From Vicinamibacteria bacterium (GTDB taxonomy: Bacteria > Acidobacteriota > Vicinamibacteria > Marinacidobacterales > Marinacidobacteraceae), in NCBI GenBank assembly GCA_963555995.3, contig OY821641.1:160001-224000 (forward strand): a stretch of 64,000 nucleotides of DNA. Direction: 5' to 3'. Numbering within the stretch: position 1 is the first letter of the stretch; the number at the start of each line of letters is the position of its first letter. A program made the position numbers and the translations under genes. This document shows positions 8,333-28,962 of this stretch, in pieces. A model generated the notes under the pieces. It saw nothing but the letters and a program-made list of their open reading frames with translations, was not told where the DNA came from and ran no database searches.

Positions 8333-10279
8333 ATGGCGAACTCATCCGGCAGCACCCGCGAGTTCACGCTGCGGGCACTTCTCCTCGGCCTCTTCATGGC
8401 CGTCGTGCTGGGAGCGGCGAACGCCTATCTCGGCATCCGCGCCGGCCAGACGGTTGCCGCCACCTTCCCGGCGGCCGTCGTCTCCATGGTCGTCATCCGG
8501 GGTCTCTTCAAGGGCAGCCTGCTTGAAGAGAACATCGCCCGCACCACGGCCTCGGTGGGCGAGGCGCTGGCCGCCGGGGCGATCTTCACGCTGCCGGCGT
8601 TCCTGATGGCGGGCGCCTGGGAGGAGTTCAACTACTGGGAGAGCACCCTGCTGATGCTCATCGGCGGCCTGCTCGGCATCCTGTTCGTGGTCATCCTGCG
8701 GCGGAGCATGGTGACCGACCCCGAGCTGCCGTTCCCCGAGTCGGTCGCCGCCGCCGAGATCCACCGCGCCGGACAGGGCGCGAGCGGCGGCCGGCTGCTC
8801 TTCCAGATGATGGGCGCCGGCGCGCTGATCGAGGTCCTCAAGAACTCGAAGGGCATCCAGCTCTTCACCGACCGGATTTCGGGGGCCCTCGGTTACGGCT
8901 CCTTCCAGGGGTCGGTCGCCGTCGGGGGCCAGTCCTTCGGGGCGGCGGCCCAGCCGGGGGTGCTGCCTTTTTCGACCCCGGCGGCGTCGCCCGCCTATCT
9001 CGGGGTGGGCTACATCATCGGGTTCCGGTTGTCGGCGCTCGTCTTCTCCGGCGGGGTCTTCGCCTGGTGGTTCATGATCCCGGCGGTCCTCTTCTTCAAT
9101 CCGGAGTTCGCCGACGCGGGAAGGCTGGCGGCGGCGGGCGCCGACTGGAGCGCGGTCAGCGGCGTGGTCTGGGCCGAGCTCGTACGGCCGATCGCGGTGG
9201 GAGCCATGATCGCCGGGGCGGTCTGGACGCTGCTCCGGATGCGCAAGTCGCTCGGGGAAGGGCTCAAGCGGTCCGTCGCCGAGCTGAGGACGGGGCACCC
9301 GGCCGGATCGGGCGACGAGAAGGACCGCGACATCCCCTTCAGCTGGACGACCGCGGGCGTGGTCGCCCTGATCGTCCCGACCTTCTTCCTCTACAACTAC
9401 TACACCGGGCAGCCGCTCGGGGCGCTCGGTTCGGCGATCGTGATGATCGTGGCCGGGTTCTTCTTCTCGGCGGTGGCCGGCTATCTCGTCGGCGTGGTCG
9501 GGAGTTCCTCGAACCCGGTTTCCGGACTCACGATCTCGACCCTGCTGCTGGCGGCGCTGCTGATGACTTTCCTCGGGGTCACCGGAACGGAGGGCGTGAC
9601 CGCGGTGCTGGGGGTGGCGGCCGTCGTCTGCTGCGCTTGCGCGGTCGCCGGGGACATGCTGCAGGACCTGAAGGTGGGCCAGATCCTCGGCGGAACGCCG
9701 TTCCGCATGGAATGGGCGGAGATCATCGGCGTGGTCTTCGCGTCCATGTTCCTGGTCCTGCCGATGATGCTGCTCCACGAGGGGGACATCGCCGCGGGCG
9801 GCATCGGGATCGGCGGCGAAGAGCTGCCGGCCCCGCAGGCGGGGCTGATGGCGCTGCTCTCCCAGGGCATCGTCGGCGGCGACATGCGCTGGCCGCTCGT
9901 GGTCTTCGGGATCGCCCTCTGTCTCTTCCTGATCCTGATCCAGGCGCCCTCCCCGATGCTGATCGCGGTGGGGATGTACCTGCCGCTCCAGACCACCTTC
10001 GCGATCTTCGTCGGCGGTTTCTTCCGCTGGCTGAGCGACCGTCAGATGGCCAAGCTTCCGGCTGAACGCCGGACGCTCGGAGAAAGCGCCGGGACGCTCA
10101 TCGCCTCCGGCCTCATCGCGGGCGAGGCGCTGATGGGCGTCGGGCTCTCCGGATTCGCGGTCGCGGAATTCCAGTTGCCGGTGCTGGTGTCCACGCCCTC
10201 CGGCATCCCGGGATTCCTGGTGTTCGTCGTGCTCGGGTGGTTCCTGATCCGCATCCCGCTCCGCCACGCGCGGGGGTAG
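8333..10279 (+). CDS. OPT-family oligopeptide transporter
   Basis: NAYLGIRAG, ENIART.AS.GE, LPFPES, SSNPVSG, QDLKVG, SGLIAGEAL; AAGGAGG RBS. Confidence 0.93.
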   Translation: MANSSGSTREFTLRALLLGLFMAVVLGAANAYLGIRAGQTVAATFPAAVVSMVVIRGLFKGSLLEENIARTTASVGEALAAGAIFTLPAFLMAGAWEEFNYWESTLLMLIGGLLGILFVVILRRSMVTDPELPFPESVAAAEIHRAGQGASGGRLLFQMMGAGALIEVLKNSKGIQLFTDRISGALGYGSFQGSVAVGGQSFGAAAQPGVLPFSTPAASPAYLGVGYIIGFRLSALVFSGGVFAWWFMIPAVLFFNPEFADAGRLAAAGADWSAVSGVVWAELVRPIAVGAMIAGAVWTLLRMRKSLGEGLKRSVAELRTGHPAGSGDEKDRDIPFSWTTAGVVALIVPTFFLYNYYTGQPLGALGSAIVMIVAGFFFSAVAGYLVGVVGSSSNPVSGLTISTLLLAALLMTFLGVTGTEGVTAVLGVAAVVCCACAVAGDMLQDLKVGQILGGTPFRMEWAEIIGVVFASMFLVLPMMLLHEGDIAAGGIGIGGEELPAPQAGLMALLSQGIVGGDMRWPLVVFGIALCLFLILIQAPSPMLIAVGMYLPLQTTFAIFVGGFFRWLSDRQMAKLPAERRTLGESAGTLIASGLIAGEALMGVGLSGFAVAEFQLPVLVSTPSGIPGFLVFVVLGWFLIRIPLRHARG

Positions 10280-11413: not shown

Positions 11414-11473
11414 CTCAGACGTAATTCCGCTCGATTTTTCCCACATTGGGCCAAAATGTGGAAAAGTCGAAGC
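11414..11473. promoter_or_regulatory. Conserved ~65 bp element, copy 1
   Basis: CAGACGTAATTCC..GATTTTTCCCAC-N13-GTGGAAAAGTCGAAGC, also at 16848 and 17714. Confidence 0.7.
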
Positions 11474-11613
11474 AAAGGTGCACAAATTGCCGTGCGGGCC
11501 AGCGGCGCGGGACCCGGGCGCGGCGTCGTTGACGCGCGGCAGAAGCCGCCCGGGCGGCTGGCTGGCGGCCAATCAGAGGGCGACGAGGACGACGAGGACG
11601 ACGAGGGACCGGC

Positions 11614-12774
11614 CTACTCCACCGCGCAGGTCGGCTCGGAACCGATGCGGTGCCGGTTGCGGGCGACGAGGTCGTAGGCCGCCTGGCCGATGCGGTCGAA
11701 GGCGGGGAAGAAGAACGCGATCATGGCGACGATCGCGAGGCTGCGCGCCCACGCGGGTCCCCAGTGCAGGCTCAGGAGGATCCCGAGCATGACGAAGTAG
11801 GTGACCGGGTTGTAGAGCAGCATCAGCTTGAACGCCCGGAAGCCCTCCGCGATGCGCTCGCCGTCCACGACGATGTGCAGGCGCTTCGCGAGGGCGTCCC
11901 GGGAGATGCCGAAGCGGTCACCGGTTCCGCTCTGGAACGTGGTCCAGCGGAAGGCGCCCTCGAAGTCGAGGGCCTCGAACCACCGCTTCGTCTTCGCGCA
12001 GATGCCGCAGTCGCCGTCGTAGATGACCTCCGTGGTCGTCCGGGGCCAGCGGGCGAACGCGAAGTAGGCGGCGGGCGCCACGTAGAGGAACAGGACGAAG
12101 GTGATCCCGGTGAAGAGCGTCATCGCCGCGTGGAACAGGATCCCGAGCCAGATCGCGAAGACCCACAGCCGCGGCCACGCGAAGCCGGCGAAGAGGCTCA
12201 GTTCGGTCGCGATGGTCCCCCAGCACATGAACTTCGACAGCGCCACCTCTGGCAGCAGCGCGGCGGCGCGCCGGTAGAGGTCGTGCTCGAGGTTGACGGT
12301 CCAGTGCTCGAAGAACTGGCCGGAAAGCCAGTCGGGATCGAGGACCTTGTTGAGTCCGGCGCCGAAATAGATCATGGCCACCTGGATCCGCAGGAGCCAG
12401 ACCGACCGTTCGGACGTGTAGAGGCCGATCAGCGTGAGCACCGCCCCCATGAAGAAGGTGTTGTTGGCCCAGTAGATCCGCGACGCGGCGATCCCGACGA
12501 GGATCGTCATGCCCACCACGAAGGAGGCCAGCCGCACCCCGCGGTTCAGGAGCAGGCAGGCCGAACCGGCGAGGAACAGGACCTGCAGCGCGGTTCGGAA
12601 CAGCTCGGGATTCCCGATCCGGTCGAAGACGGACAGGAAGGGAAGGAACGGGTCCGGGAGCGTCGTCACGTGGCCGGTGGCCAGCATCGTGACCACGATG
12701 AGCTTCGCCGACAGCAGGAGGGGTACAGGCAAGGGCGTACCGCCCAGCCGCAGCGGATTCCACGACGGCGCCAT
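11614..12774 (-). CDS. HTTM-like membrane protein fused to a DCC1-like thiol-disulfide domain
   Basis: QVAMIYFGAGLNKVLDPDWLSG and GILFHAAM (HTTM); IYDGDCGIC (DxxCxxC). Confidence 0.75.
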   Translation of the reverse strand: MAPSWNPLRLGGTPLPVPLLLSAKLIVVTMLATGHVTTLPDPFLPFLSVFDRIGNPELFRTALQVLFLAGSACLLLNRGVRLASFVVGMTILVGIAASRIYWANNTFFMGAVLTLIGLYTSERSVWLLRIQVAMIYFGAGLNKVLDPDWLSGQFFEHWTVNLEHDLYRRAAALLPEVALSKFMCWGTIATELSLFAGFAWPRLWVFAIWLGILFHAAMTLFTGITFVLFLYVAPAAYFAFARWPRTTTEVIYDGDCGICAKTKRWFEALDFEGAFRWTTFQSGTGDRFGISRDALAKRLHIVVDGERIAEGFRAFKLMLLYNPVTYFVMLGILLSLHWGPAWARSLAIVAMIAFFFPAFDRIGQAAYDLVARNRHRIGSEPTCAVE

Positions 12775-12781
12775 TACGGCC

Positions 12782-13123
12782 CTATCGTGGCGGCCAGGTC
12801 CACGTCTCTTCCGGATGCCCGTTGACGGTGTAGATCACGACGACCTCCGCCCCGTCGTCCCGGCCGTAGGTCTCCTCGTACTGCCGGACCTTGTCGAGCG
12901 CGTGCTGGATGGCCTGCCAGTTGCCGCCCTCGGCCGGCTGTCGGTAGCGCGCTTCGATCTCCTCGGCGCTGAGCTCGCGCCCGTCCATGACGACCGCGAT
13001 CGAGTAGAGGTTCTGCGAGTCCATCGGCGCCCAGCAGAAGTAGCGGGACGGGACGAAGCGCGCGTACCCGATCATGGCGACCTGGAAGGCGAGCAGCGCG
13101 ACGGCGGCAAGGGTGCGGGTCAC
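12782..13123 (-). CDS. Hypothetical 113-aa exported or membrane-anchored protein
   Basis: 3' part of ORF 12782..14815; GTG overlapping the SSS stop; hydrophobic N-terminus, YFCWAP motif. Confidence 0.65.
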   Translation of the reverse strand: MTRTLAAVALLAFQVAMIGYARFVPSRYFCWAPMDSQNLYSIAVVMDGRELSAEEIEARYRQPAEGGNWQAIQHALDKVRQYEETYGRDDGAEVVVIYTVNGHPEETWTWPPR

Positions 13124-14643
13124 GAACCGAGCGTATCCCGTCGCGGCGCGCGACGCTCCCACACCGCGCTGACCGTCCAGCCGACGGCGACCTGGACCAG
13201 GAGCGACGCCGAAGCGACCCACTGGAAGCTCACCGGGTCGCCGCCGGTCTCGGGGTCGAATCCGAAGATGGGTCCGGAGAAGGCGACGAGCGCCGCCGCG
13301 ACGATGCCCGCGACGGTGCCGGCGGCCGCTCCGCCGGCCCGCACCCGGGGCAGGAACAGCGCGAAGAGGAAGAGACCGAAGATGGGGCCGGTCAGGAGGT
13401 TCGACGTCTTGGACGTCACCTCGGTGATGTTGCCGGGGACGAGGTCCATGAGGAAGCTGCCGAGTACGATGAGTCCGCCGGCCGCCGCGGCGAGCCAGCG
13501 GGCCTGCCGGAGGTCGCGCGCGTCGTCGGGCCGGCGCTTCCGGAAGCGGCCCACGAAGTCGGTCAGCACCACCGCCGAGATCGAGTTCACGCCCGAGTCC
13601 ACGCTGGACATGGCGGCGGCGAACATCGCGGCGACGACGAGTCCCGCGATCCCCGCCGGGAGCCGGTTGGCGATGAAGAACGGGAACACGTGGTCCGCGT
13701 CGTCGCGCAGCGACATGCCCGCGCCGAGTTGCCCGGGAAAGGCCTCGAAGTAGCCGAGGAGCGCGACGCCGACGAGCGCGAGCACGATCGTGACCACGGC
13801 GATCGCCAGAAGCTGGGTCCCGTAGGCCCGCCGGGCCGCGCGCAGGTCGGTGGTCGCCATGAAGCGCTGCACCGAGACCTGGTCGCCGCCCGCGGTGGCC
13901 GCGTACCAGACCATCGTGGAGACCACGGTCCCGAACGCCGTTACCCGCGTGGCCGGGTCGAGGCTGAACAGGGGCTGCGTGTCCCAGTTGGCCTGCCAGG
14001 TCGTCGGAAACCACCCGAAGCCGCCGAGCTCCACGGTCACGATGCCGAGCACCAGCAGCGCCCCTCCGAAGAGCAGCAGGGACTGGATGCAGTCGGTGAC
14101 GACGACGGCCCGCAGACCTCCGAGCGACGTGTAGATGACCGCCACCGTCGCCGTGAACAGGACGACGAGCGGTACCGCGGAGGGACCGGCGCCGATCATT
14201 ACCGTCAGCGCGACCGCCGCCGCATGGACCACCAGCGACATCCAGGCGAGCCGGAGCACGATGAACATCGAAGCGCCCAGCAGCCGCGCCCCGGGGCCGA
14301 GGCGCACCTCGAGGAGCTCGTAGGCGCTCGTCACCCGGTGCTTCATGTACACCGGCAGCAGTCCGTAGCAGACGACCACATAGACGAGGGGAAGCCCCAG
14401 GAGCTGGACCAGCAGCACCGGCCCCCGCCCGAGCGTTTCCCCCGGTACCGACAGGTAGGACACCGTGCTGACGAGCGTCGCGAACAGCGAGATGCCCACG
14501 GCGACGGGGTGGAGCCGGCCGCCGCCGATGAAGTACTCCTTCGTCGAGGACTGGCGCCGGCCGTAGAACCAGCCGAGCCAGAGGGTGAGGCCCGCGTAGG
14601 CCGCGAGGACGAGCCAGTCGGTGGCGGCCAGGCCCTGGTTCAT
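13120..14643 (-). CDS. Sodium:solute symporter (SSS) family transporter
   Basis: EYFIGG, SAYELLEVRLG, GGLRAVVVTDCIQ, DQVSVQRF, AAAMSSVDSGVNS. Confidence 0.93.
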   Translation of the reverse strand: MNQGLAATDWLVLAAYAGLTLWLGWFYGRRQSSTKEYFIGGGRLHPVAVGISLFATLVSTVSYLSVPGETLGRGPVLLVQLLGLPLVYVVVCYGLLPVYMKHRVTSAYELLEVRLGPGARLLGASMFIVLRLAWMSLVVHAAAVALTVMIGAGPSAVPLVVLFTATVAVIYTSLGGLRAVVVTDCIQSLLLFGGALLVLGIVTVELGGFGWFPTTWQANWDTQPLFSLDPATRVTAFGTVVSTMVWYAATAGGDQVSVQRFMATTDLRAARRAYGTQLLAIAVVTIVLALVGVALLGYFEAFPGQLGAGMSLRDDADHVFPFFIANRLPAGIAGLVVAAMFAAAMSSVDSGVNSISAVVLTDFVGRFRKRRPDDARDLRQARWLAAAAGGLIVLGSFLMDLVPGNITEVTSKTSNLLTGPIFGLFLFALFLPRVRAGGAAAGTVAGIVAAALVAFSGPIFGFDPETGGDPVSFQWVASASLLVQVAVGWTVSAVWERRAPRRDTLGS

Positions 14644-14683
14644 CCTCACGTTGGCAGCCCACGGCTGGAGTGGCGCACCGCCT

Positions 14684-14825
14684 GGGAGCGCCGACCTTCA
14701 GGTCGGCACGCGGCCCGCAGGGCCGCAGGGGCGCGCCGCCAGTCGGGCTGAACGGCGGCGCGGGTTTCCCGGCGCCATCCGGTTGGGGAGCGGTCTGCGG
14801 TGCCGGTGTGAACACCGGCGCTCCC
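14684..14825. repeat. Inverted pair of REP-like hairpins
   Basis: GGGAGCGCCGACCTTCAGGTCGGCAC ... GTGCCGGTGTGAACACCGGCGCTCCC. Confidence 0.8.
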
Positions 14826-14893
14826 GGCGGCCAGACCCTGTTTCATCCGCGCTCGGGTATAACACAGCCGCGCAGCGAAGGGAGACCCGAGCC

Positions 14894-15838
14894 ATGACCC
14901 CGGCGGACGCCAAGCGAACCATCTGTGGACCGTTGATTCCGGTCATCACCAACTACGCGGACGACCTCACCGTCGATCACGACGCCATCCGGGAGAACGT
15001 TCGCTACGTCGTGGACCGGGGCGTCCGCACCGGAAGCGGGGTGCTCCTCGCCGCCGGCGCCGGGGGCGACTTCCCGATGCTGACGCTCGACGAACGGAAG
15101 GCGGTGTGCGAAACGATCGTGCGGGCCGCCGATGGCCGGACGCCGGTGCTGGTCGGAGCGCAGGACACGAACCCGAACGTGTCCGTCGAGCTCGCCCGCT
15201 TCGCCGAGGACATCGGCGCCTGGGGCATCCAGCTCGCGCCGGGCTACTACTACGAGTCGTCGGCCGAGGACTGCTACCGGCTGTTCGAGACGGTGCACGA
15301 AGCGACCAGCACGCTCGGCATCATGATCTACAACACGCACTGGGAGAGCTACGACATGTCGCTCGACGACGTCGAACGGCTCGCCGAACTGCCCCGCTGC
15401 GCCGCCCTCAAGTGGTCCACCGCGCGCGGCACTCTCGACTACCAGCGCGGGGTCGTGCGCTTCCGGGACCGCCTCGCCGTGATTGACAACCACGGGCTCC
15501 AGGGCCTCACCCACATGCTCGGCGGGCGGGGATACATCACCCACCTGTGCACCGTCTGGCCCGAGCACGACCTCGAGGTCTTCCGTCTCATGGAAGCGGG
15601 CGACTACGCCGCGGCGCAGAACCTGTTGAGCACCGTCAACTGGCCCTGGTACGACTTCCGGGTGCGGATGTGGCGCCGCACCGGCGCCGAGAGCCCGGTC
15701 GTCAACGCGGCGCTCGAGTTGACGGGCCGGAAGGGCGGCCCCAGCCGGCTCCCCACCCGCCGCCTCGACGAGTCGGAACGCGAGGAGCTGCGAAGGCTGC
15801 TGATCGAGATCGGCGTCCCGGGCGTCCAACCGGGGTAG
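14894..15838 (+). CDS. Dihydrodipicolinate synthase / class I aldolase family protein
   Basis: GAGGDFPMLTLDERK, IMIYN, ALKWS Schiff-base lysine; ATG at 14894. Confidence 0.87.
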   Translation: MTPADAKRTICGPLIPVITNYADDLTVDHDAIRENVRYVVDRGVRTGSGVLLAAGAGGDFPMLTLDERKAVCETIVRAADGRTPVLVGAQDTNPNVSVELARFAEDIGAWGIQLAPGYYYESSAEDCYRLFETVHEATSTLGIMIYNTHWESYDMSLDDVERLAELPRCAALKWSTARGTLDYQRGVVRFRDRLAVIDNHGLQGLTHMLGGRGYITHLCTVWPEHDLEVFRLMEAGDYAAAQNLLSTVNWPWYDFRVRMWRRTGAESPVVNAALELTGRKGGPSRLPTRRLDESEREELRRLLIEIGVPGVQPG

Positions 15839-15869
15839 GGACCCACCGGGAGAAACCGGCGGACACGGC

Positions 15870-16028
15870 TTGGAACGCCGGCTTCAGCCGGCACAGCCCG
15901 CCGAAGGCGGGCGGCGAGACGGACCTCAGGTGCCGGGATGGCTGGGCTGTGCGAGCCAACGCGCCCGGGGTAGCGACGAACCGCCCGCGGCCCTGCGGGC
16001 CGCGGTGCCGGCTGAAGCCGGCGTTCCC
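15870..16028. repeat. Inverted pair of REP-like hairpins
   Basis: TTGGAACGCCGGCTTCAGCCGGCAC ... GTGCCGGCTGAAGCCGGCGTTCC. Confidence 0.85.
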
Positions 16029-16121
16029 AGCCGGCGGTGCACTTCCGGCTCCGGGAGAACGCGCGGAACCGCATTCTTGCAGCAGCCGGACCGACTTCCG
16101 GCCGCGCTCCCGGCGGCCCCC

Positions 16122-16784
16122 TCAGCCGGTCGGGGGAACGAAGTCGCGCGGCCGGAACTCCGGCGGGTTGACGATGCTGGCGCTGTTGCCCGTCGCCCGA
16201 ATCACGAAGAGTCCCTTTCGCCCGGCGTAGCGGGAGGTTCCCTGGTGCTCCCGGAGGTAGGCGACTCCGCCGTAGAGCCGCCTTCCCCGGACGTGCCGCA
16301 GCAGGGCCGGGTGCGCCAGCAGGTCGAGGAACCGGTCCACATCAGGCGGTCGCAGCGTGGTCTTCACCTCGACCGCCACCACCTCATCCCCGTTGGTCGC
16401 GAGAAGATCCACCTCGCGCTCGTACGGACCGCACTCCAGCCGGAGGCGTGAGTAGACGGCTTCAACCTTTACGCCGCGTTCCCGCAGCAGCTTCAACAGG
16501 TCGCCCTCGACGAGCGACTCCACCAGCCGCCCCCACTGGCTGGTGAACAGATCCTCCGCGCGCCGGAGCCGCCGGTCGGCTTCCTTCCTCTGCCGGTCGG
16601 CTTCCCCCTGAATCTGCTTCAGGTGCCGGGCGGTTTCCTCCATCTGCCGATCGGTCTCCTTCATCCGCCGGTCGGTCTCCTTCATCTGCTGGTTGGTCTC
16701 TTCCTGGCCCTTCGCCACCCGGTCGAGGGTCTCCAGGATTCCCTCCAGGGTTACGGGCGCCGGATCGGTGTGTGGGGTGTTCAT
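16122..16784 (-). CDS. Coiled-coil protein with C-terminal PD-(D/E)XK-like nuclease domain
   Basis: KETDRQM heptad repeats, WGRLVESLV, EVDLL...AVEVK; AAGGAGG RBS. Confidence 0.8.
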   Translation of the reverse strand: MNTPHTDPAPVTLEGILETLDRVAKGQEETNQQMKETDRRMKETDRQMEETARHLKQIQGEADRQRKEADRRLRRAEDLFTSQWGRLVESLVEGDLLKLLRERGVKVEAVYSRLRLECGPYEREVDLLATNGDEVVAVEVKTTLRPPDVDRFLDLLAHPALLRHVRGRRLYGGVAYLREHQGTSRYAGRKGLFVIRATGNSASIVNPPEFRPRDFVPPTG

Positions 16785-16847
16785 GGATGCTGGCCTCCTT
16801 GGAGTCTATGCCGGTGCTGAGGCCTCCGTCGTACGGGCCTCTCCACG

Positions 16848-16914
16848 CTCAGACGTAATTCCGGCCGGATTTTTCCCACTTCACGGGGAATTGTGGAAAA
16901 GTCGAAGCGAAGCG
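16848..16914. promoter_or_regulatory. Conserved ~65 bp element, copy 2
   Basis: Same arms and 13-nt spacer as copies 1 and 3. Confidence 0.7.
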
Positions 16915-17094
16915 TCGTTCTGCGGGGCTGCTGGGCGGGCTGAAATGTTCCTGCCTGACATCTGCTATCGTGCCCGGCAAGGAGCACGTCGCTATCGCTC
17001 GGTCGTTCCCCAGGGTGCCTGGCTCCCCAGATGGAAAGGCGATCCGGCTTGCCGGAGGCGGAGAGGGTCGACCTCCGCCCGTGTTCCCGCGGGG

Positions 17095-17658
17095 CTACCA
17101 GGCGCAGCCCCATCCCATTCCGTGCGGCGCGCGAAATATGTTGGCGGCCTCGGCGCGCAAGTGCTCAACGTAAGTGTCCGTGACCCCGTAGAGGGTTTGT
17201 AGTCGCACGCGCTTGCCGTCGGGGCTGCGCCGCACGACGGCATGGATCAGGTTTCCGTGCACCTCGTCCACGAGGTTCAGGCGTCGCTCCAATTCCGCCG
17301 CTGACAGCGGTTGCGACGGCATGCGGCGCATCACTTCTCTGGGTGCCGCCAGGAGGTCCGCCGCTCGCACCAGGTCCGGCGCCTGGAGGCCGTGCTTCCG
17401 GATCAGATGGCGGGCCTGCCGGGCCTCCAGATGCACCACGTCGGTCTTTGCTTCCAACCAGCCCTTCACATCGGGGTCCAGAACTCCCACGACGAGGCGC
17501 CCCCGAGGATTCGCCAGGAACCCGTCCACGACGGGACTCCGCAACACGGCGCGTAGTGCGGCATCCGCGGTAGCGGCTGCCGGGTAGCGGTCCGTCTCCC
17601 GCCTGGAGACCCGCCGTAGCCAGCGCTTGCATCCCCACCTGTTCGCGGTTCCCGGCAC
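17095..17658 (-). pseudogene. Possible truncated phage MuF C-terminus plus PBECR-like nuclease domain
   Basis: NRWGCKRWLRRVSRRE resembles the MuF PPNGWGCKC.VR end; HLIRKHG and AVVRRSPDGKRVRLQTLY resemble BECR-fold toxins. Confidence 0.4.
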
Positions 17659-17713
17659 GGGGACCTCCGTGGTGAGTTGACTGCGGAAAGGCGGGATGCC
17701 TCCCCTAACTCTC

Positions 17714-17778
17714 CAGACGTAATTCCGGCCGGATTTTTCCCACTTCGGGGGGTTTTGTGGAAAAGTCGAAGCGAAGCG
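17714..17778. promoter_or_regulatory. Conserved ~65 bp element, copy 3
   Basis: Near-identical to copy 2 apart from the 13-nt spacer. Confidence 0.7.
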
Positions 17779-17836
17779 ACGTTTGGCGCGCGGATCCGGC
17801 CGCTTTCCGGCAGCACTTCCGGAGCGGATGGATGGA

Positions 17837-18110
17837 TCAGCCGGGGCCGGCGTGGGTCAGCAGCAGGATGGCGGCGATGCGGCGCGTGGTGTTGGTGAAG
17901 TGGTGGACCTCTTCGGGGTGGAGGGGGCGGTCGAGGACGGAGCGCTCGCGGTAGGAGAGCCACTTCTTGAGGACCTGGTAGCCGCCGAGGCGGTAGTTCC
18001 AGACGGCGGCGGGGACGTTCCGCCAGTGGGCGCGGTCGTTCAGGTGGATGTCGAGGGTGGTGTCACCGAGCGCCCGGAGGGCGGGCGCGAGAGTGGCGCG
18101 ATCGGCGGGT
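17837..18110 (-). pseudogene. Second copy of the 3' end of the R-M gene
   Basis: About 17862-18109 matches about 19083-19330 in the same orientation, with its own stop at 17837-17839. Confidence 0.88.
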
Positions 18111-19057: not shown

Positions 19058-22000
19058 TCAGGCGTTGGTGGACGCCGTGAGGAGCAGGATGGCGGCGATG
19101 CGGCGGGTGGTGTTGGTGAAGTGGTGGACCTCTTCGGGGCGGAGGGGGCGGTCGAGGACGGAGCGCTCGCGGTAGGAGAGCCACTTCTTGAGGACCTGGT
19201 AGCCGCCGAGGCGGTAGTTCCAGACGGCGGCGGGGACGTTCCGCCAGTGGGCGCGGTCGTTCAGGTGGACGTCGAGGGTGGTTTCGCCGAGGGTGGGGAG
19301 GGCGGGGGCGAGGGTGGCGCGTTCGGTGGGGGTGAAGGGGCGCTCGGCGGCGCGGCCGGTGCCGGGCATCACGGCGTCGCCGGCGCCGAAGTGTCCCCAG
19401 CCGGCGGTGACGGCGAAGTCGGCGCCGGACATGTTGCCGCCGTCCGTGGTGGCGGGGACGGCGAGGGCGGCGAGTTCGGGACGGAGGGTCCCCTCGGTGA
19501 CGCCGGGAGCCGGGGCGTCGGGGTCGAGCAGCCGGGCCAGTTCCCGGCCGCGGGCGGCGGACCGCTTCAGTTCGGCCGCAGCGCCTTCGGTGTCGCCGTC
19601 CGGCCAGCCGGGAAGGGGAACGCGGGGCCATTCCATGCGGAGCGCCCCGGCGTTGGCCGCGTGGTAGGCGGGATCGTGGAGGGTGGCGAGCGCGTGGAAG
19701 AAGAGATCGTCGGAACTCACGTCGGCGCCTTGCAGATACCGGAGCGCGTCGCCCGACAGGTTGGGCCGGGACGGTTCGGCGCCCCTCGCGTCCGCTCCCA
19801 GACCGCGGAGGTACTGCGGGAAGAAGCTGGAGAGTCCGTTGCCGAAGTTGTCGGCGAGGGCCGTGACGAAGGTTCCCCGGCAAAAGTCTTCCCGCGCCTC
19901 CTTCTCACGGGCTTCGATCCACGAATTCCCGGGGAAGACCTGCGAGTGGTAGTCAGGGCGCTTTCTGTCAAGGAGTTCGGTCTCGCCTTCCCAATAGAGC
20001 CACCGGATGTCGAAGGGACGGTAGGCGAAGCGGACGAAGCCGGACTCGGACGGTCCCCCACGCGAGAGGAGCGCGTCCCGCACCGTCCGCGCGGCGAAAC
20101 GTCCCGTGGTCCTCATCACCGCCGGATAGCGCCGGGCGATCTCATCGTGGCTGAGGCGCGCGTCGAAATAGTCTGTGACTCGGGCCTTCAGCCGATCCAG
20201 ATCCACATCCACCAGGAACCCGTCGCGACTGGTCTTCACGCCCGGAAAGGCCATGGGAAACAGTTCGGGGAGCGACGGCCACGAGAACCAGTTCTCGCTC
20301 ACGACCAGCGGGACGAATGGCAGACCGAGGGGCAGTGACGGGCGAACCCCTCCATAGACCGGCGGAGACTCCGCGAGGTCGGCGAGCTTCGTCCGGCCCC
20401 ACAGGTGCCGGAACGCGATCTTGCGGACCGGCGCATGCTCGGCGCGACGCACGAGGGTGGTGACAGCGGTGCCCACCTGGATGCCGACCGGATCCTCCGG
20501 CGTCGAGAACACGCTCGGGTCCGGCGCCCCGTCCGGCGTCGTCTTCCCGGTCCGGTACTTGTCGCCGTTGAGGCAGTCCACCCGGATCGCGTCGAACGCC
20601 TCCAGGTACCGCTCCCGCATCCCGGTGAACGACAGCCCGTCCAGCCACGAGTAGTTCGAGATGAAACAGACCACGCCGCGCCCGGTCTTCTCGACGATGC
20701 GCCGCTCGGCCATGCGGAAGAAACGGACGTACACGTCGTTGAGTCCCTGACCCTCGGGCTGTCGCACCTCCTTCGTGGTCCGGTAGGCGTCCGAGAGCTC
20801 CCGCTCCTCCTCCACCGCCACGCCCGCGAACCCGTTGTACGGCGGGTTCCCGAGGATCACCAGGATCGGCGTCTCCTGCTTCACCCGCTCCGCCCGGTCG
20901 CGCTCCTCCGCGAGTTCCGGGAACAGCAGCGGCTTCCGCTCCTTCGCCTCCCACCCGGTGAGCGCGTTCGTCAGGAACACCTGCGCCCGCTCCGCGCCGT
21001 CCTCGGACAGCGGCGCGTCGAGGTCCTGCATCGTCAGCCCGACCTGCAGGTGGGCCACCACGAACGGCGCGGGCATGATCTCGAAGCCGAAGACGCGCCG
21101 CGTGGCGGCCTCCTTCACCCGCGCCCCGACGAGCGCCCCGAGGCCCTTGCCTTCGAGGTTGGACCCGATGCGGCGCAGCACCTCGGCGAGGTAGGCCCCG
21201 GTCCCGCAGCACGGGTCGAGCACGTACACGTTCTCCGCCGCCAGCCCGTCGGCGATCCCGAGGTCGTCCCGGAGCGCCCGGTCCACCCGGGCGACCATGT
21301 AGCGGACGATCTCGTTCGGGGTGTACCAGACGCCGAGCTGCTTCCGCAGGCCGGGATCGAAGGCCGCGAGGAACGGCTCGTAGAAATAGGTGACCGCCTC
21401 TCCTTCCCGGAAGCGCTCGAAGAACGCCTTCCGGTCCACGCGGTCGAGGGCGGCGTCCGTCCAGTCGAGGACTTCGACGAGGCCGAGCGGCTGCAGGCGG
21501 CCGGGATCGGAGAGTTGTTGGAAGAGCGCCCGCAGCACCGGCGCGCGCAGGTGCCAGACCGCCTTCCGCCATTCGAAGCGGGCCTCCGCCGGACCGGCGC
21601 GCGCCCACAGCACCCACGCGGAGAAGACCCCGTAGAAGAGTGTCTGGACCAGCGTCGAGTGGAAGAAGCGTTTCCCGCGTTCGCCCTCGAACCGGATCCC
21701 GAGCGCCTCTTCGAGCGCGGCGCGGAGCGGCTCGAACGCGGCGGCCTCGTCGCTGGCCTCGACCCGCGAGAGCCCGTCCCGCGCGTAGGAGGCGAGCAGC
21801 CAGGCGAGGTCCCGCGGCTCGGCGATCGCCGCCCGCCAGGACAGCGCGCGGGTGAGGTACTCGACGAGACGCTCCCCGATCTCGCGGGCGAAGGCGCGGG
21901 GCTTCCCGAGCTTCCGGTGGAACTCGCCCGCGCTCTCCGCCAGCCGGAAGGTTTCGAGGGTGCGTTGCCCTTGGGCCGGGTCGGGGCCGACCAGGGCGAA

Positions 22001-22384
22001 CTCGCGCAGGTTGGTGACGAGCACGAGCCGGTAGCGCGCCCAGTAGCGGGCGACCTGTTCCCCGGCGGCGACGACCGCCAGTTCGTCCGGGTCCGGCTTG
22101 ACTTCCACGACGCCGCGCTCGGGAATCTGCCCGGTGCGCGGCCGGCCGCGCTGGACCTGCTTCGCCGAGTAGAGCCCGATGTCGGGGTGGCCCGCGCCCT
22201 GGTCGGCGAGCTCGGGGACGCAGAAGACCTTCGGCTTCAGACCGCCGCCCACCGCGTTCAGCAGGTTCACCAGCGCGGTGTAGCGGGACCGCTCGCCGGT
22301 CGCGCCGCCGGAGGCGCCGAGGCGGGCGAGGTCGCTCAGGTAGTGCTCGACGGCGGTGGTGAGGCGGGCCTTGGGAGGGGTCAC
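19058..22384 (-). CDS. Single-chain restriction-modification enzyme (nuclease, N6-adenine MTase, TRD; type IIG/IIL or helicase-less ISP-like)
   Basis: PDIGLY...VVEVK nuclease, FYEPFLAAFD, GVWYTP, LDPCCGTG, ILGNPPY, YRPFDIRWLY, LGGYQVLKKWLSYR; GTG start at 22384 inferred. Confidence 0.9.
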   Translation of the reverse strand: MTPPKARLTTAVEHYLSDLARLGASGGATGERSRYTALVNLLNAVGGGLKPKVFCVPELADQGAGHPDIGLYSAKQVQRGRPRTGQIPERGVVEVKPDPDELAVVAAGEQVARYWARYRLVLVTNLREFALVGPDPAQGQRTLETFRLAESAGEFHRKLGKPRAFAREIGERLVEYLTRALSWRAAIAEPRDLAWLLASYARDGLSRVEASDEAAAFEPLRAALEEALGIRFEGERGKRFFHSTLVQTLFYGVFSAWVLWARAGPAEARFEWRKAVWHLRAPVLRALFQQLSDPGRLQPLGLVEVLDWTDAALDRVDRKAFFERFREGEAVTYFYEPFLAAFDPGLRKQLGVWYTPNEIVRYMVARVDRALRDDLGIADGLAAENVYVLDPCCGTGAYLAEVLRRIGSNLEGKGLGALVGARVKEAATRRVFGFEIMPAPFVVAHLQVGLTMQDLDAPLSEDGAERAQVFLTNALTGWEAKERKPLLFPELAEERDRAERVKQETPILVILGNPPYNGFAGVAVEEERELSDAYRTTKEVRQPEGQGLNDVYVRFFRMAERRIVEKTGRGVVCFISNYSWLDGLSFTGMRERYLEAFDAIRVDCLNGDKYRTGKTTPDGAPDPSVFSTPEDPVGIQVGTAVTTLVRRAEHAPVRKIAFRHLWGRTKLADLAESPPVYGGVRPSLPLGLPFVPLVVSENWFSWPSLPELFPMAFPGVKTSRDGFLVDVDLDRLKARVTDYFDARLSHDEIARRYPAVMRTTGRFAARTVRDALLSRGGPSESGFVRFAYRPFDIRWLYWEGETELLDRKRPDYHSQVFPGNSWIEAREKEAREDFCRGTFVTALADNFGNGLSSFFPQYLRGLGADARGAEPSRPNLSGDALRYLQGADVSSDDLFFHALATLHDPAYHAANAGALRMEWPRVPLPGWPDGDTEGAAAELKRSAARGRELARLLDPDAPAPGVTEGTLRPELAALAVPATTDGGNMSGADFAVTAGWGHFGAGDAVMPGTGRAAERPFTPTERATLAPALPTLGETTLDVHLNDRAHWRNVPAAVWNYRLGGYQVLKKWLSYRERSVLDRPLRPEEVHHFTNTTRRIAAILLLTASTNA

Positions 22385-23929: not shown

Positions 23930-24343
23930 TCAGTGCGCCGGTGGACGGAACGGATCGAGCGTCGGAACGCCGAACGGCTCCAAGTCCCGGACGTTCCGGG
24001 TCACCACCGTGAGCCGGTGCACGACCGCGGTGGCGGCAATGAGCGCGTCGGTCGTCAGGGTGTCGGACCTGCGGTGCATGAGGCGCGCCCATTCGCGAAA
24101 CACCGGGCCGTCCTGCGGCAGGACGCGGTAGGTCGCGAGTACCTGATCGAGCCACCGTTCGAGTGCAGCCGCCTTGGCCGTGTCCTGTTCCCTCGTGATC
24201 TCGATTCCGGCCTGGATTTCCCCGATGGTGACGCCGGAGAGATAGAGCCGCTCCGGTGGAACCTGCCGAATCCAGTCCAGAACACCGAGGTGGGGCCGTG
24301 GGCGGCGCAACTCGGACACGACATTCGTATCCAGCAGGTACAC
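23930..24343 (-). CDS. vapC: VapC PIN toxin
   Basis: YLLDTNVVSEL, TIGEIQAGI, DALIAATA, VVTRNVRD. Confidence 0.95.
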   Translation of the reverse strand: MYLLDTNVVSELRRPRPHLGVLDWIRQVPPERLYLSGVTIGEIQAGIEITREQDTAKAAALERWLDQVLATYRVLPQDGPVFREWARLMHRRSDTLTTDALIAATAVVHRLTVVTRNVRDLEPFGVPTLDPFRPPAH

Positions 24344-24346
24344 GAT

Positions 24347-24607
24347 CTACTCGAACGAGGGCGACCGGCGGCGCGCTAGCCGACGGCGGGGTGGCGTGAG
24401 GGACTCGGTGCGTGGTGCGGGCGCGAGCAGCAAGTCCTTCAGGTTCGGCTGGGCGATTCGCTGCAGGCTCCGCCACTGCTCCAGCGGCACCACGACCGCC
24501 GTCTCGATGCCTCGTCTGGTGACGATCTGGGGTCCCTCCGCGATGGTTCTCTCGAGAAGTTCGCTGAACCGCGCCTTGGCGGTCTGCACTTGCCACCGGT
24601 TACTCAT
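24347..24607 (-). CDS. Phd/YefM antitoxin
   Basis: WQVQTAKARFSELL...GPQIVTRRG. Confidence 0.93.
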   Translation of the reverse strand: MSNRWQVQTAKARFSELLERTIAEGPQIVTRRGIETAVVVPLEQWRSLQRIAQPNLKDLLLAPAPRTESLTPPRRRLARRRSPSFE

Positions 24608-27392: not shown

Positions 27393-27641
27393 ATGGATCC
27401 CATCGCCACGAACCCCCGCGCCCTGGGCCAGGCGATTCGCCGGCTGCGGCGCGAGCGCGGCATGACGCAGGCGGAACTCGCGGAAGCCTGCGTCTTGCGG
27501 CAGGCGACCGTCTCCGCCGCCGAGAACGGCGCCCCGGGAACGCGTTTGGACACGCTCTTCCGCCTGCTCGCGGTGCTCGGGCAGGCGGTCGTCCTCCGCG
27601 ACCGCGTGCGCCTGCTCGCGGATCGGGGCGGCGTCGAATGA
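27393..27641 (+). CDS. hipB: HipB-like XRE antitoxin
   Basis: LGQAIRRLR...TQAELA...QATVSAAENG...LDTLF. Confidence 0.87.
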   Translation: MDPIATNPRALGQAIRRLRRERGMTQAELAEACVLRQATVSAAENGAPGTRLDTLFRLLAVLGQAVVLRDRVRLLADRGGVE

Positions 27642-27663
27642 CTCGGCTGAGGGCGCCGGCGGC

Positions 27664-28962
27664 GTGACCTCTCGGGTGCGGATTCTCGGCCTCTTCGAAA
27701 ACGGCCGCCGCCTTGGCAGACTCCTCCGGACCTCGTCCGGGCTGTCGCTGGAATACGACCCCGAGTGGCTTTCGTGGGATGGCGCGACGCCGGTGTCGCT
27801 CTCGCTGCCGCTGGGCCCCGCGGCACATCGGGGAGAGCGGGTGCTCCGCTTCCTCGACAACCTCCTTCCGGATTCCGAGGGAATGCGAGCCCGGTTGGCG
27901 TCGCGCGTGGACGCGCCGGACACCCATCCGTTCACGCTGCTGGAGTGTCTGGGCCGATGCTCCGCCGGCGCGCTGACCTTCGTTCCCGACGGGGAGGACC
28001 CGGGCGCGGCAGGCGCCGCGTCGGGGCGGCCGTTGTCCGATGCGGAGGTCGGAACGCTGCTCGCGCAACTCGACCGGCGCCCCCTTGGAGTCGGCCCGCG
28101 CTTTCGCATCTCGCTCGCGGGGGCGCAGCGCAAGACCGCCCTCCTGTTGCAGGACGGCGTTTGGCGCCTACCCCTCGGGTTCACGCCGACGACCCACATC
28201 CTGAAGCCGCAGACCGGCTCGGTGATGGGGGTGGACTTCAGCCGAAGCGTCGAGAACGAGTTCCTCTGCCTGAGGCTGGCCTCGGCGTTCGGGCTCGCGG
28301 TGGCGCGAGCCCGGATCGCGGACTTTGCGGAAGCGCGCGCCCTCGTGGTGGAGCGTTTCGACCGGCGCTGGACGGAGGATGGACGGCTGCTGCGAATACC
28401 GCACGAGGACTGCGCCCAGGCGCTCGGCGTCCCGACCCGGCGGAAATACGAGATGGACGGGGGACCGGGGTTCGGGGAGCTGCTGGGTCTGCTGGAAGGA
28501 TCGGTGCATCCGGACGCCGACCGGCGCAGTTTCCTGCGCGCGCAGATCGTTTTCTGGCTGCTCGCGGCGGTGGACGGCCACGCCAAGAACTACAGCCTCC
28601 GGCTGCTCCCCGCGGGACAGTTCCGGCTGGCGCCGCTCTACGACATCGTCTCGGTGCAGCCGGGCCTCTCCCGCGGGGAGCTCCCGGCGGACGACGCGAT
28701 GATGTCGCTCGCGGTCGGGGATGCGGGCCTCCGGGGGCCGGACGACATCGGGCCGGAACACTTCTTCCAGAGCGCGAAGGCGGCCGGGGTTCCCGCGCGC
28801 GTTGTTCAGCGAATCTTCGCGGAACTGATCGAAACCCGGGCCGGGGCCTTCGAGGCCGTCCGCGCGAGCCTGCCGGAGGACTTCCCGCGAGCGATGGAGG
28901 CTGCCATCTTCGGTGCCGTCACCGGCCACCTGCACCGGATCGAGCGCTATCTGGCCGGATGA
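27664..28962 (+). CDS. hipA: HipA family Ser/Thr kinase toxin
   Basis: SLSLP, DNLLPD, ISLAGAQRK, THILKP, ERFDR, DGHAKNYS, LAPLYD. Confidence 0.95.
   Translation: MTSRVRILGLFENGRRLGRLLRTSSGLSLEYDPEWLSWDGATPVSLSLPLGPAAHRGERVLRFLDNLLPDSEGMRARLASRVDAPDTHPFTLLECLGRCSAGALTFVPDGEDPGAAGAASGRPLSDAEVGTLLAQLDRRPLGVGPRFRISLAGAQRKTALLLQDGVWRLPLGFTPTTHILKPQTGSVMGVDFSRSVENEFLCLRLASAFGLAVARARIADFAEARALVVERFDRRWTEDGRLLRIPHEDCAQALGVPTRRKYEMDGGPGFGELLGLLEGSVHPDADRRSFLRAQIVFWLLAAVDGHAKNYSLRLLPAGQFRLAPLYDIVSVQPGLSRGELPADDAMMSLAVGDAGLRGPDDIGPEHFFQSAKAAGVPARVVQRIFAELIETRAGAFEAVRASLPEDFPRAMEAAIFGAVTGHLHRIERYLAG

Follow-up and report, generated by a model that had tools for sequence, protein, structure and literature searches.

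A candidate competence-regulon promoter with a DnaA-type box and a divergent ECF-type sigma factor in an uncultured order of Acidobacteriota

To our knowledge, nearly all known regulators of competence come from Firmicutes and Proteobacteria. Here we describe an element present in three copies in a 64,000-nucleotide stretch of a Vicinamibacteria bacterium (Acidobacteriota; assembly GCA_963555995.3, contig OY821641.1), hereafter the window, which corresponds to C1:160001-224000 of the source genome G000 (3.8 Mb, 70% G+C; other G numbers designate genomes of relatives). An original prediction, made from the letters of the window, had left a choice between a portable promoter or operator defining a regulon and a recombination site delimiting single-gene cassettes. 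Our comparison of genomes suggests that the element is probably the promoter of a regulon for natural competence, comprising DNA uptake and recombination, read by a divergent sigma factor of the extracytoplasmic function (ECF) type and activated by DnaA from a site upstream of the -35.

The closest described systems each share some of these properties. ComX/SigX of streptococci and SigH of Lactobacillus sakei (PMC6560143, PMC3364868) are alternative sigma factors that read a promoter of their own ahead of dprA, radC, recA/ssb and the genes of the uptake pilus, and a T-rich stretch precedes a CG-containing -10, as in the present case. Unlike the ComX cin-box, which has a TMCGAATA -10 and no -35, the element carries a true -35 (GGGAAR/GGAGG), ECF spacing and a CGTC(T) -10; moreover, it occurs in diderm Acidobacteriota, with an ECF-like sigma whose anti-sigma-like partner combines zf-HC2, transmembrane (TM) and tetratricopeptide repeat (TPR) parts. 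The CRP-S/Sxy regulon of gamma-proteobacteria (PMC1635313) includes comM, dprA, pilABCD, comA-E (equivalent to pilMNOPQ), radC and ssb, a set echoed here, and its activator sites near -62 and -73 also lie one helical turn apart. On the other hand, the column profile of our element contains no TGCGA-N6-TCGCA 22-bp palindrome, its upstream site is a DnaA-type 9-mer and its core is of ECF type, not sigma70. That core recalls the ECF/zinc anti-sigma systems with a class I anti-sigma domain (PMC7776599, PMC7826278) by its GGAAN-like -35, 16-17 nt spacer, CGT -10 and an anti-sigma-like gene right behind the sigma gene, whereas here the promoter lies between sigma and anti-sigma rather than before sigma; the word 'competence' is not in the main text of either paper. 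Finally, activation by DnaA via a single box acting at the promoter is known for gcrA and mipZ of Caulobacter (PMC3193534); here, in contrast, the box goes with an alternative sigma and recurs at a fixed phase throughout a regulon of uptake and accessory genes. The system would work in the manner of the ComX/SigH and CRP-S regulons without belonging to either. Its sigma is ECF-like; two families add an anti-sigma-like partner of zinc/TPR type, and a third has a DnaA-type box. The literature covered, which leaves out most subscription journals and regulon tables S6-S9 of PMC7776599, gave no account of the element, of competence control in Acidobacteriota, of an ECF/anti-sigma competence switch or of DnaA-activated competence genes.

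Architecture and targets of the element

Read on the gene strand, the element consists of the DnaA-box 9-mer TTTTCCACA, 14 nt (25 in some copies), GGGAAA, 15-16 nt and CGTCT. Block A is a conserved flank followed by TTTTCCACA; block B is RYGGGAAA with CGTCTR 15-16 nt past the hexamer, and the consensus TTACGTCTA carries the conserved -35. Three matches are found in the window and none in 100 shuffles. The original prediction had located these three copies correctly, in the same orientation, with the spacers as written and each upstream of a minus-strand open reading frame (ORF), CCDC90-like, PD-(D/E)XK-like and PBECR2/MuF_C-like, respectively. The motif CAGACG starts at 11416, 16850 and 17714; the starting points 11414 and 16848 of the original prediction take in the preceding CT. 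That prediction had used the non-gene strand, and the competence targets were outside its view.

In the source genome, 24 copies possess both blocks, and two further block-B sites, one of them before dprA, lack a good box. The distance between blocks is short (13-nt spacer) in 22 of the 24 and exactly 11 bp longer (24 nt) in the other two. Among 125 distinct elements aligned from G000 and from fetched loci of relatives, the box-to-promoter offset is 24 in 121 and 35 in four, so the 13-nt spacer is not strictly fixed as first thought, while the gap between -35 and -10 varies by 1 nt. A one-turn shift of the upstream block together with one-base play downstream would be expected of an activator site plus promoter. 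The geometry is that of a bipartite ECF-type promoter with a CGT-type -10; its spacer is 16 (15) nt when counted from the hexamer and 17 (16) when counted from GGGAA. With this geometry, a fixed orientation to the downstream start and orthologous sites before comM, pilB, pilV and pilM, the portable promoter of the original prediction is upheld, and the element is very probably a promoter.

The 'inverted arms' noticed earlier turn out to be the box and the -35, facing each other across the spacer. As a palindrome they are not maintained: A.C stands at one pair in 61/121 elements and C.A at another in 24/121, with no compensating change (the search limited the left arm to at most one mismatch), and spacer pairing is 0.82 as against 0.76 +/- 0.05 in shuffles. 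A structured RNA was rejected, as there is no compensated stem and no Rfam family, Rfam giving no match in the window. The absence of other copies or an Rfam identity had been named as evidence against the original prediction; 24 full copies exist in G000. Identity with a miniature inverted-repeat transposable element (MITE) or a repetitive extragenic palindrome (REP) was likewise rejected: conservation is position-specific and orientation to genes fixed, unlike the true MITE of this genome with its near-identical ends. That separate MITE, of 170/260 bp, is present in at least 18 copies in G000 (e.g. C1:3472550-3472825, 532629, 1522991). It is bounded by the terminal inverted repeats CAGCCTGTGGAYAAAGT, flanked by CTAG/TTAA-like sequence, and has a DnaA-box 9-mer in its ends; one copy lies in the dnaA-dnaN spacer.

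The genome-wide search suggested with the original prediction was carried out with a matrix trained without G000 sites, and its table of downstream genes drawn up from our own gene calling. It gives 26 sites above 20 bits, against none in the reversed genome, and 25 of them are intergenic and no more than 350 bp from a same-strand start. Targets are of two kinds, competence and accessory. The core ones are comM/YifB (TIGR00368 over cut-off), dprA (TIGR00732 over cut-off), a PilB/GspE ATPase gene, pilM-N-O, with pilP and pilQ assigned by position and eye, and a pilV-like operon, whose prepilin motif was recognised by eye and which matches no family. The accessory ones comprise 17 small coiled-coil genes, two coiled-coil PD-(D/E)XK-like genes and a PBECR2-like gene. 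A strongly hydrophobic helix is present in 16 of the 17 coiled-coil products, the window's one alone passing the PF07798 cut-off; about 15 further coiled-coil loci of G000 are without the full element. Five paralogues are clustered at C1:699370-702407 (L005), where their neighbours are a phage integrase and a toxin-antitoxin pair of PIN type. Two of them share the same deletion of box and -35, which indicates that gene and promoter duplicate together.

The element is conserved beyond G000, related genomes in these counts not being independent samples. The exact block-A core is found in 14/15 genomes of the genus versus 0/25 others. In G014, the element precedes the orthologues of comM, pilB, pilV and pilM and recurs at the rsmD-antisense site, its -35 having drifted to GGGAAG. 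In a GTDB scan whose pattern included no -10 (80 of 104 matching stretches covered), CGTC follows 15-17 nt on in 71/71 scorable acidobacterial matches versus 1/11 others. Four genomes of another genus (g6) were scanned for the box, 36 nt and CGTS, with no -35 in the pattern, giving 34 matches versus none in controls; the -35 there is CGCRAC/CGGGAC and the flank is altered, box and distance being kept. Thirty of these loci were examined, labelled by tblastn to G000 proteins: 11 precede pilT, pilM, pilV, pilB or recA, 18 coiled-coil genes and one an unrelated gene. A 3.6-kb contig titled Acidimicrobiia (L176) also carries a full element, by misbinning or transfer.

Farther away, block B is found alone. 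With regexes composed after inspecting dprA/comM upstream regions, as were those of the sister-family scans, the promoter half was detected before dprA in 12/13 genomes of the genus, 4/12 other genomes of the same family, 17/19 of sister families and 1/33 of other orders. When eight sister-family genomes were scanned whole, the patterns returned 45 versus 5 matches (6 rows double-counted) and 150 versus 22 against reversed controls. Of about 189 distinct sites, 96 were followed to downstream genes: dprA (3), comM, recA, radC and ssb (2 each), pilB and comEA (1 each), recQ (1), DEAD helicase (2), Uma2 (2) and a few toxin-antitoxin genes. In G031 it is comEA that is preceded by the promoter. Mobile-element targets are integron integrases (3, two over the TIGR02249 cut-off), REP-tyrosine-transposase-like genes (2, below cut-off), IS1595 (1) and IS110 (1). 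The integron integrase, REP-tyrosine-transposase-like and IS1595 genes start directly behind the promoter (L510, L514, L468, L476, L520, L515). On this distribution, the promoter half is older than the full element, and order-wide. In other orders of the class the promoter was not found, and many have TATAAT-like sites before dprA; in many of these upstream regions (L253-L285) the TATAAT-like site is followed by GAGGTCGGG, a distinct conserved motif. Taken together, the targets make a regulon of competence type a likely assignment.

A divergent sigma factor and the upstream box

Pfam searches of G000 with regions 2 and 4 returned nine and six sigma genes, respectively, none of them with the element. 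A tenth, at C1:3675889-3676590, was found by a looser TIGR02937 search (E 4.8e-10, below cut-off) and has no Pfam match at E <= 1e-4. This divergent sigma is present in 39/40 genomes of the same order versus 0/80 other genomes of the class, and is syntenic with hslV in three sister-family genomes. In 15/15 sister-family genomes with the sigma, the promoter lies just past its stop codon (8 by regex, 7 by eye). The ORF behind sigma and promoter, translated in seven of these cases, displays TPRs, a central hydrophobic segment and HxxxCxxC in all seven, with zf-HC2 over cut-off in four. No orthologue of this anti-sigma-like gene was found in G000, where searches gave only generic TPR matches, and it does not follow the sigma in 16 own-family loci. 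In G030 (94% complete) the sigma was not found, dprA has two stops and comM gave no match.

The divergent sigma has an invariant Asp at the position of RpoE Asn84, and around Arg171 it is variable (Ala/Gly/Glu/Ser/Arg), in most cases without the C-selecting Lys/Arg, as judged by manual alignment to Todor 2020 Dataset S3 (PMC7776599). In that dataset, Lys/Arg at the Arg171 position goes with C at -31 in ECF sigmas, and the residues observed here would fit CG at -13/-12 and non-C at -31. Moreover, the -35 and region 4.2 of the sigma both differ between families. The sigma was modelled with a predicted local distance difference test (pLDDT) score of 61 from the single sequence (poor) and 76 from the alignment. 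From its range, its neighbourhood and its contact residues, this sigma probably reads the promoter.

Several relatives of this gene deserve mention. G024 contains two copies of the divergent sigma, each adjoining an element-driven coiled-coil gene (L410, L416). Related sigmas occur in other Acidobacteriota classes (L547-L563), in at least 17 of 300 genomes of the phylum when the best nine candidates per genome were scored, and 10 of the 17 are followed by an HxxxCxxC ORF. The family weakly matches the type III-E CRISPR RpoE-like model NF041236. As other readers, six canonical ECFs were discarded, all being conserved in five family genomes without co-loss; three of them have Lys at the Arg171 position, selecting C at -31. 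Of the six, the ECF beside comF is class-wide and was not found in three sister-family genomes.

The DnaA box has the consensus TTWTNCACA. It is fitted by the box of 124/125 elements, which begins with TTTT in 121 and TTAT in three. In G000, TTTTCCACA occurs 28 times versus 3.8 expected, 23 of them inside elements. Between dnaA and dnaN there are three similar boxes of the same TTTT type, spaced by 11 bp, the skew minimum being 44 kb away. In sister families the 9-mer stands upstream of just 2/115 sites; the own family has elements with the box and a sigma locus without the anti-sigma-like gene. The binder of this box is likely to be DnaA, which we hold somewhat less firmly than the other parts of the reading. 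Another TTTTCCACA stands alone at C1:3677251 (L375), about 165 bp upstream of a two-gene unit that ends in the divergent sigma, on the same strand; DnaA might control the sigma gene as well.

The window and the competing explanations

Features of the window are collected in the table below.

Features of the window (positions counted from its first letter)
Feature	Position	Strand	Remarks
OPT transporter	8333..10279	+	hotspot of variable cargo at the 3' end, within the genus
CCDC90-like (DUF1640) coiled-coil protein, 243 aa, C-terminal hydrophobic helix	10566..11297	-	PF07798 E 1.2e-9, over cut-off; hydropathy; target of copy 1
Element copy 1	11414..11482	-	CGTCT -10-like 11417-11421; GGGAAA -35-like 11437-11442; spacer 15 nt; DnaA-box 9-mer TTTTCCACA 11457-11465
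Element copy 1, left flank	to about 11482		genus-conserved
HTTM/DCC1 gene	11614..12774	-	upstream of copy 1; adjoins OPT in G011, which has no insert
Coiled-coil protein with probable PD-(D/E)XK nuclease domain, 220 aa	16122..16784	-	Hjc/DUF4143 matches weak, below cut-off; target of copy 2
Element copy 2	16848..16917	-	-10 16851-16855; -35 16872-16877; spacer 16 nt; DnaA-box 9-mer 16892-16900
PBECR2/MuF_C-like putative nuclease, 187 aa	17095..17658	-	ESM Atlas feature score 0.93, best 10/10 matches in one clan; target of copy 3
Element copy 3	17714..17781	-	-10 17715-17719; -35 17736-17741; spacer 16 nt; DnaA-box 9-mer 17756-17764
Partial duplicate (3' end) of the type ISP restriction-modification gene, 254 bp, 94% identical	17856..18109	-	rearrangement scar just upstream of copy 3, outside the element
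Type ISP restriction-modification gene	19058..22384	-	PF18135, PF02384; upstream of copies 2-3

The 220-aa gene has a paralogue at C1:2655301 with a promoter of its own; the 187-aa protein gave no Pfam or NCBIfam match. Varied cargo is found behind the OPT gene in 14 relatives, the site being empty in G011 and occupied by a different insert in G003. A homologue of the copy-1 gene is located there in two relatives, within the 1.5 kb that the comparison covered, and G013 has a similar type ISP gene fragment. The window also includes a PIN toxin-antitoxin pair and a HipBA-like pair (23930-24607 and 27393-28962, read by eye), homologues of which are alternative cargo behind OPT in relatives.

Such a hotspot, together with tandem arrays of element and gene at C1:672, 699-702 and 2004-2005 kb, would suit the other possibility raised by the original prediction, namely a recombination site or transposon end delimiting single-gene cassettes. 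This is now very improbable. Orthologous copies precede core operons, dprA has the promoter half only, the arms show no covariation, and spacer and flanks differ among copies, unlike those of the separate MITE. The proposed strain comparison placed no breakpoint at the element: homology to G011 and G003 resumes at 11609-11612, about 130 bp away. The earlier remark that the element does not match attC or dif-type sites holds, given arms that do not covary and breakpoints elsewhere. Alternatively, promoter and sigma could be as we propose and serve a LexA-independent DNA-damage or envelope-stress regulon, with pili for motility or adhesion. The sister-family targets recA, radC, ssb, recQ, DinG-like helicases, integrases and transposases would be in keeping with it, as would the lack of a site at comEC and comEA in G000; membrane anti-sigmas, too, usually sense envelope cues. 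It is nevertheless unlikely, since dprA, comM, comEA (in G031) and four pilus operons are the set that defines the CRP-S and ComX regulons in the sources cited, since uvrA, recN and lexA are missing from the 26 G000 sites and the 96 sister-family sites followed, and since G000 carries comEC, comEA and dprA genes.

A competence promoter might also be read by another sigma, either the order-specific group-2/3 sigma at C1:3693590 or the ECF at C1:971057, which we regard as slightly more unlikely still. The ECF is order-restricted (22/27 versus 1/53) but was not found in G029 and G032, both of which have the promoter, and region 4.2 of the group-2/3 sigma is RpoD-like. The promoter is absent from both of their loci in G000, whereas in sister families the divergent sigma has it before the anti-sigma-like neighbour. 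In the group-2/3 sigma the -12 contact position is a Trp, and some members of the genus have as many as four paralogues of it. The most serious contender concerns the upstream block, which could possibly bind a dedicated activator other than DnaA, the 9-mer being part of a longer site. Within the genus, conservation extends over 14 more bases to the left of the box, and TTTT is preferred over TTAT (121 to 3); both point that way. Against it, genus g6 keeps only the 9-mer and its spacing, variation is confined to the DnaA consensus, boxes of the origin region share the TTTT type, and non-acidobacterial matches to the same core are DnaA-box clusters. We keep DnaA as the likelier binder.

Several observations weigh against our interpretation of a competence promoter read by the divergent sigma with the help of DnaA. 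Accessory genes with no known role in uptake make up 20 of the 26 G000 targets. In G000 there is no site within 330 bp of comEA, comEC, pilC, pilA or pilD, comEC being internal to an operon; pilT has only the -10-like part, and the recA site, at 15.2 bits, is borderline, below the control maximum of 16.1. One conserved site with the +11 spacing, C1:2097559 (L011; also L020, L040), runs antisense through rsmD towards a 402-aa gene, for which no Pfam, NCBIfam or Atlas match was found. Many of the 96 sister-family sites lie inside genes or have no clear ORF behind them. As regards the sigma, the fold search of its model puts sigma factors on top with a best E of 8.4e-3 and none at E <= 0.001, G030 keeps the dprA promoter despite the sigma not being found there, and the group-2/3 sigma has the same order-wide range (26/27 versus 0/53). 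As regards the box, the genus-conserved flank CTTCGCTTCGAC to its left is not accounted for by DnaA.

A proposed circuit and its meaning

In the model we favour, RNA polymerase with the divergent sigma would recognise GGGAAR-N16-CGTC. In the two sister families, a membrane anti-sigma of zf-HC2/TM/TPR type, transcribed from the promoter, would hold the sigma off, closing a negative loop. In the own family, the DnaA box at about -58 to -50 (or -69 to -61, one turn further; ECF numbering assumed) would be a class-I activator site and would tie the regulon to replication state. The promoter has also been gained by genes for small coiled-coil membrane proteins, nucleases, integron integrases and transposases, which would be induced together with the core genes; those for coiled-coil proteins have spread by duplication along with it. 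A more tentative and rather doubtful extension supposes an ancestral competence switch of ECF sigma and membrane anti-sigma in the order, of which the own family would have lost the anti-sigma, its regulon passing under DnaA; DUF1640/CCDC90-like proteins would be competence-stage effectors, in cell contact or DNA release, and integrons and transposases would act on the arrival of foreign DNA.

Should this reading be correct, an uncultured acidobacterial order would have a named circuit of sigma, anti-sigma-like protein, promoter and regulon, in which the replication initiator may be connected with DNA uptake. It would place integron integrases and transposases under a competence-type promoter instead of LexA, and would offer the DUF1640/CCDC90-like coiled-coil family, which is expanded in symbionts, its first hint of a function. 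Sigma and promoter are open to test in E. coli without culturing the organism.

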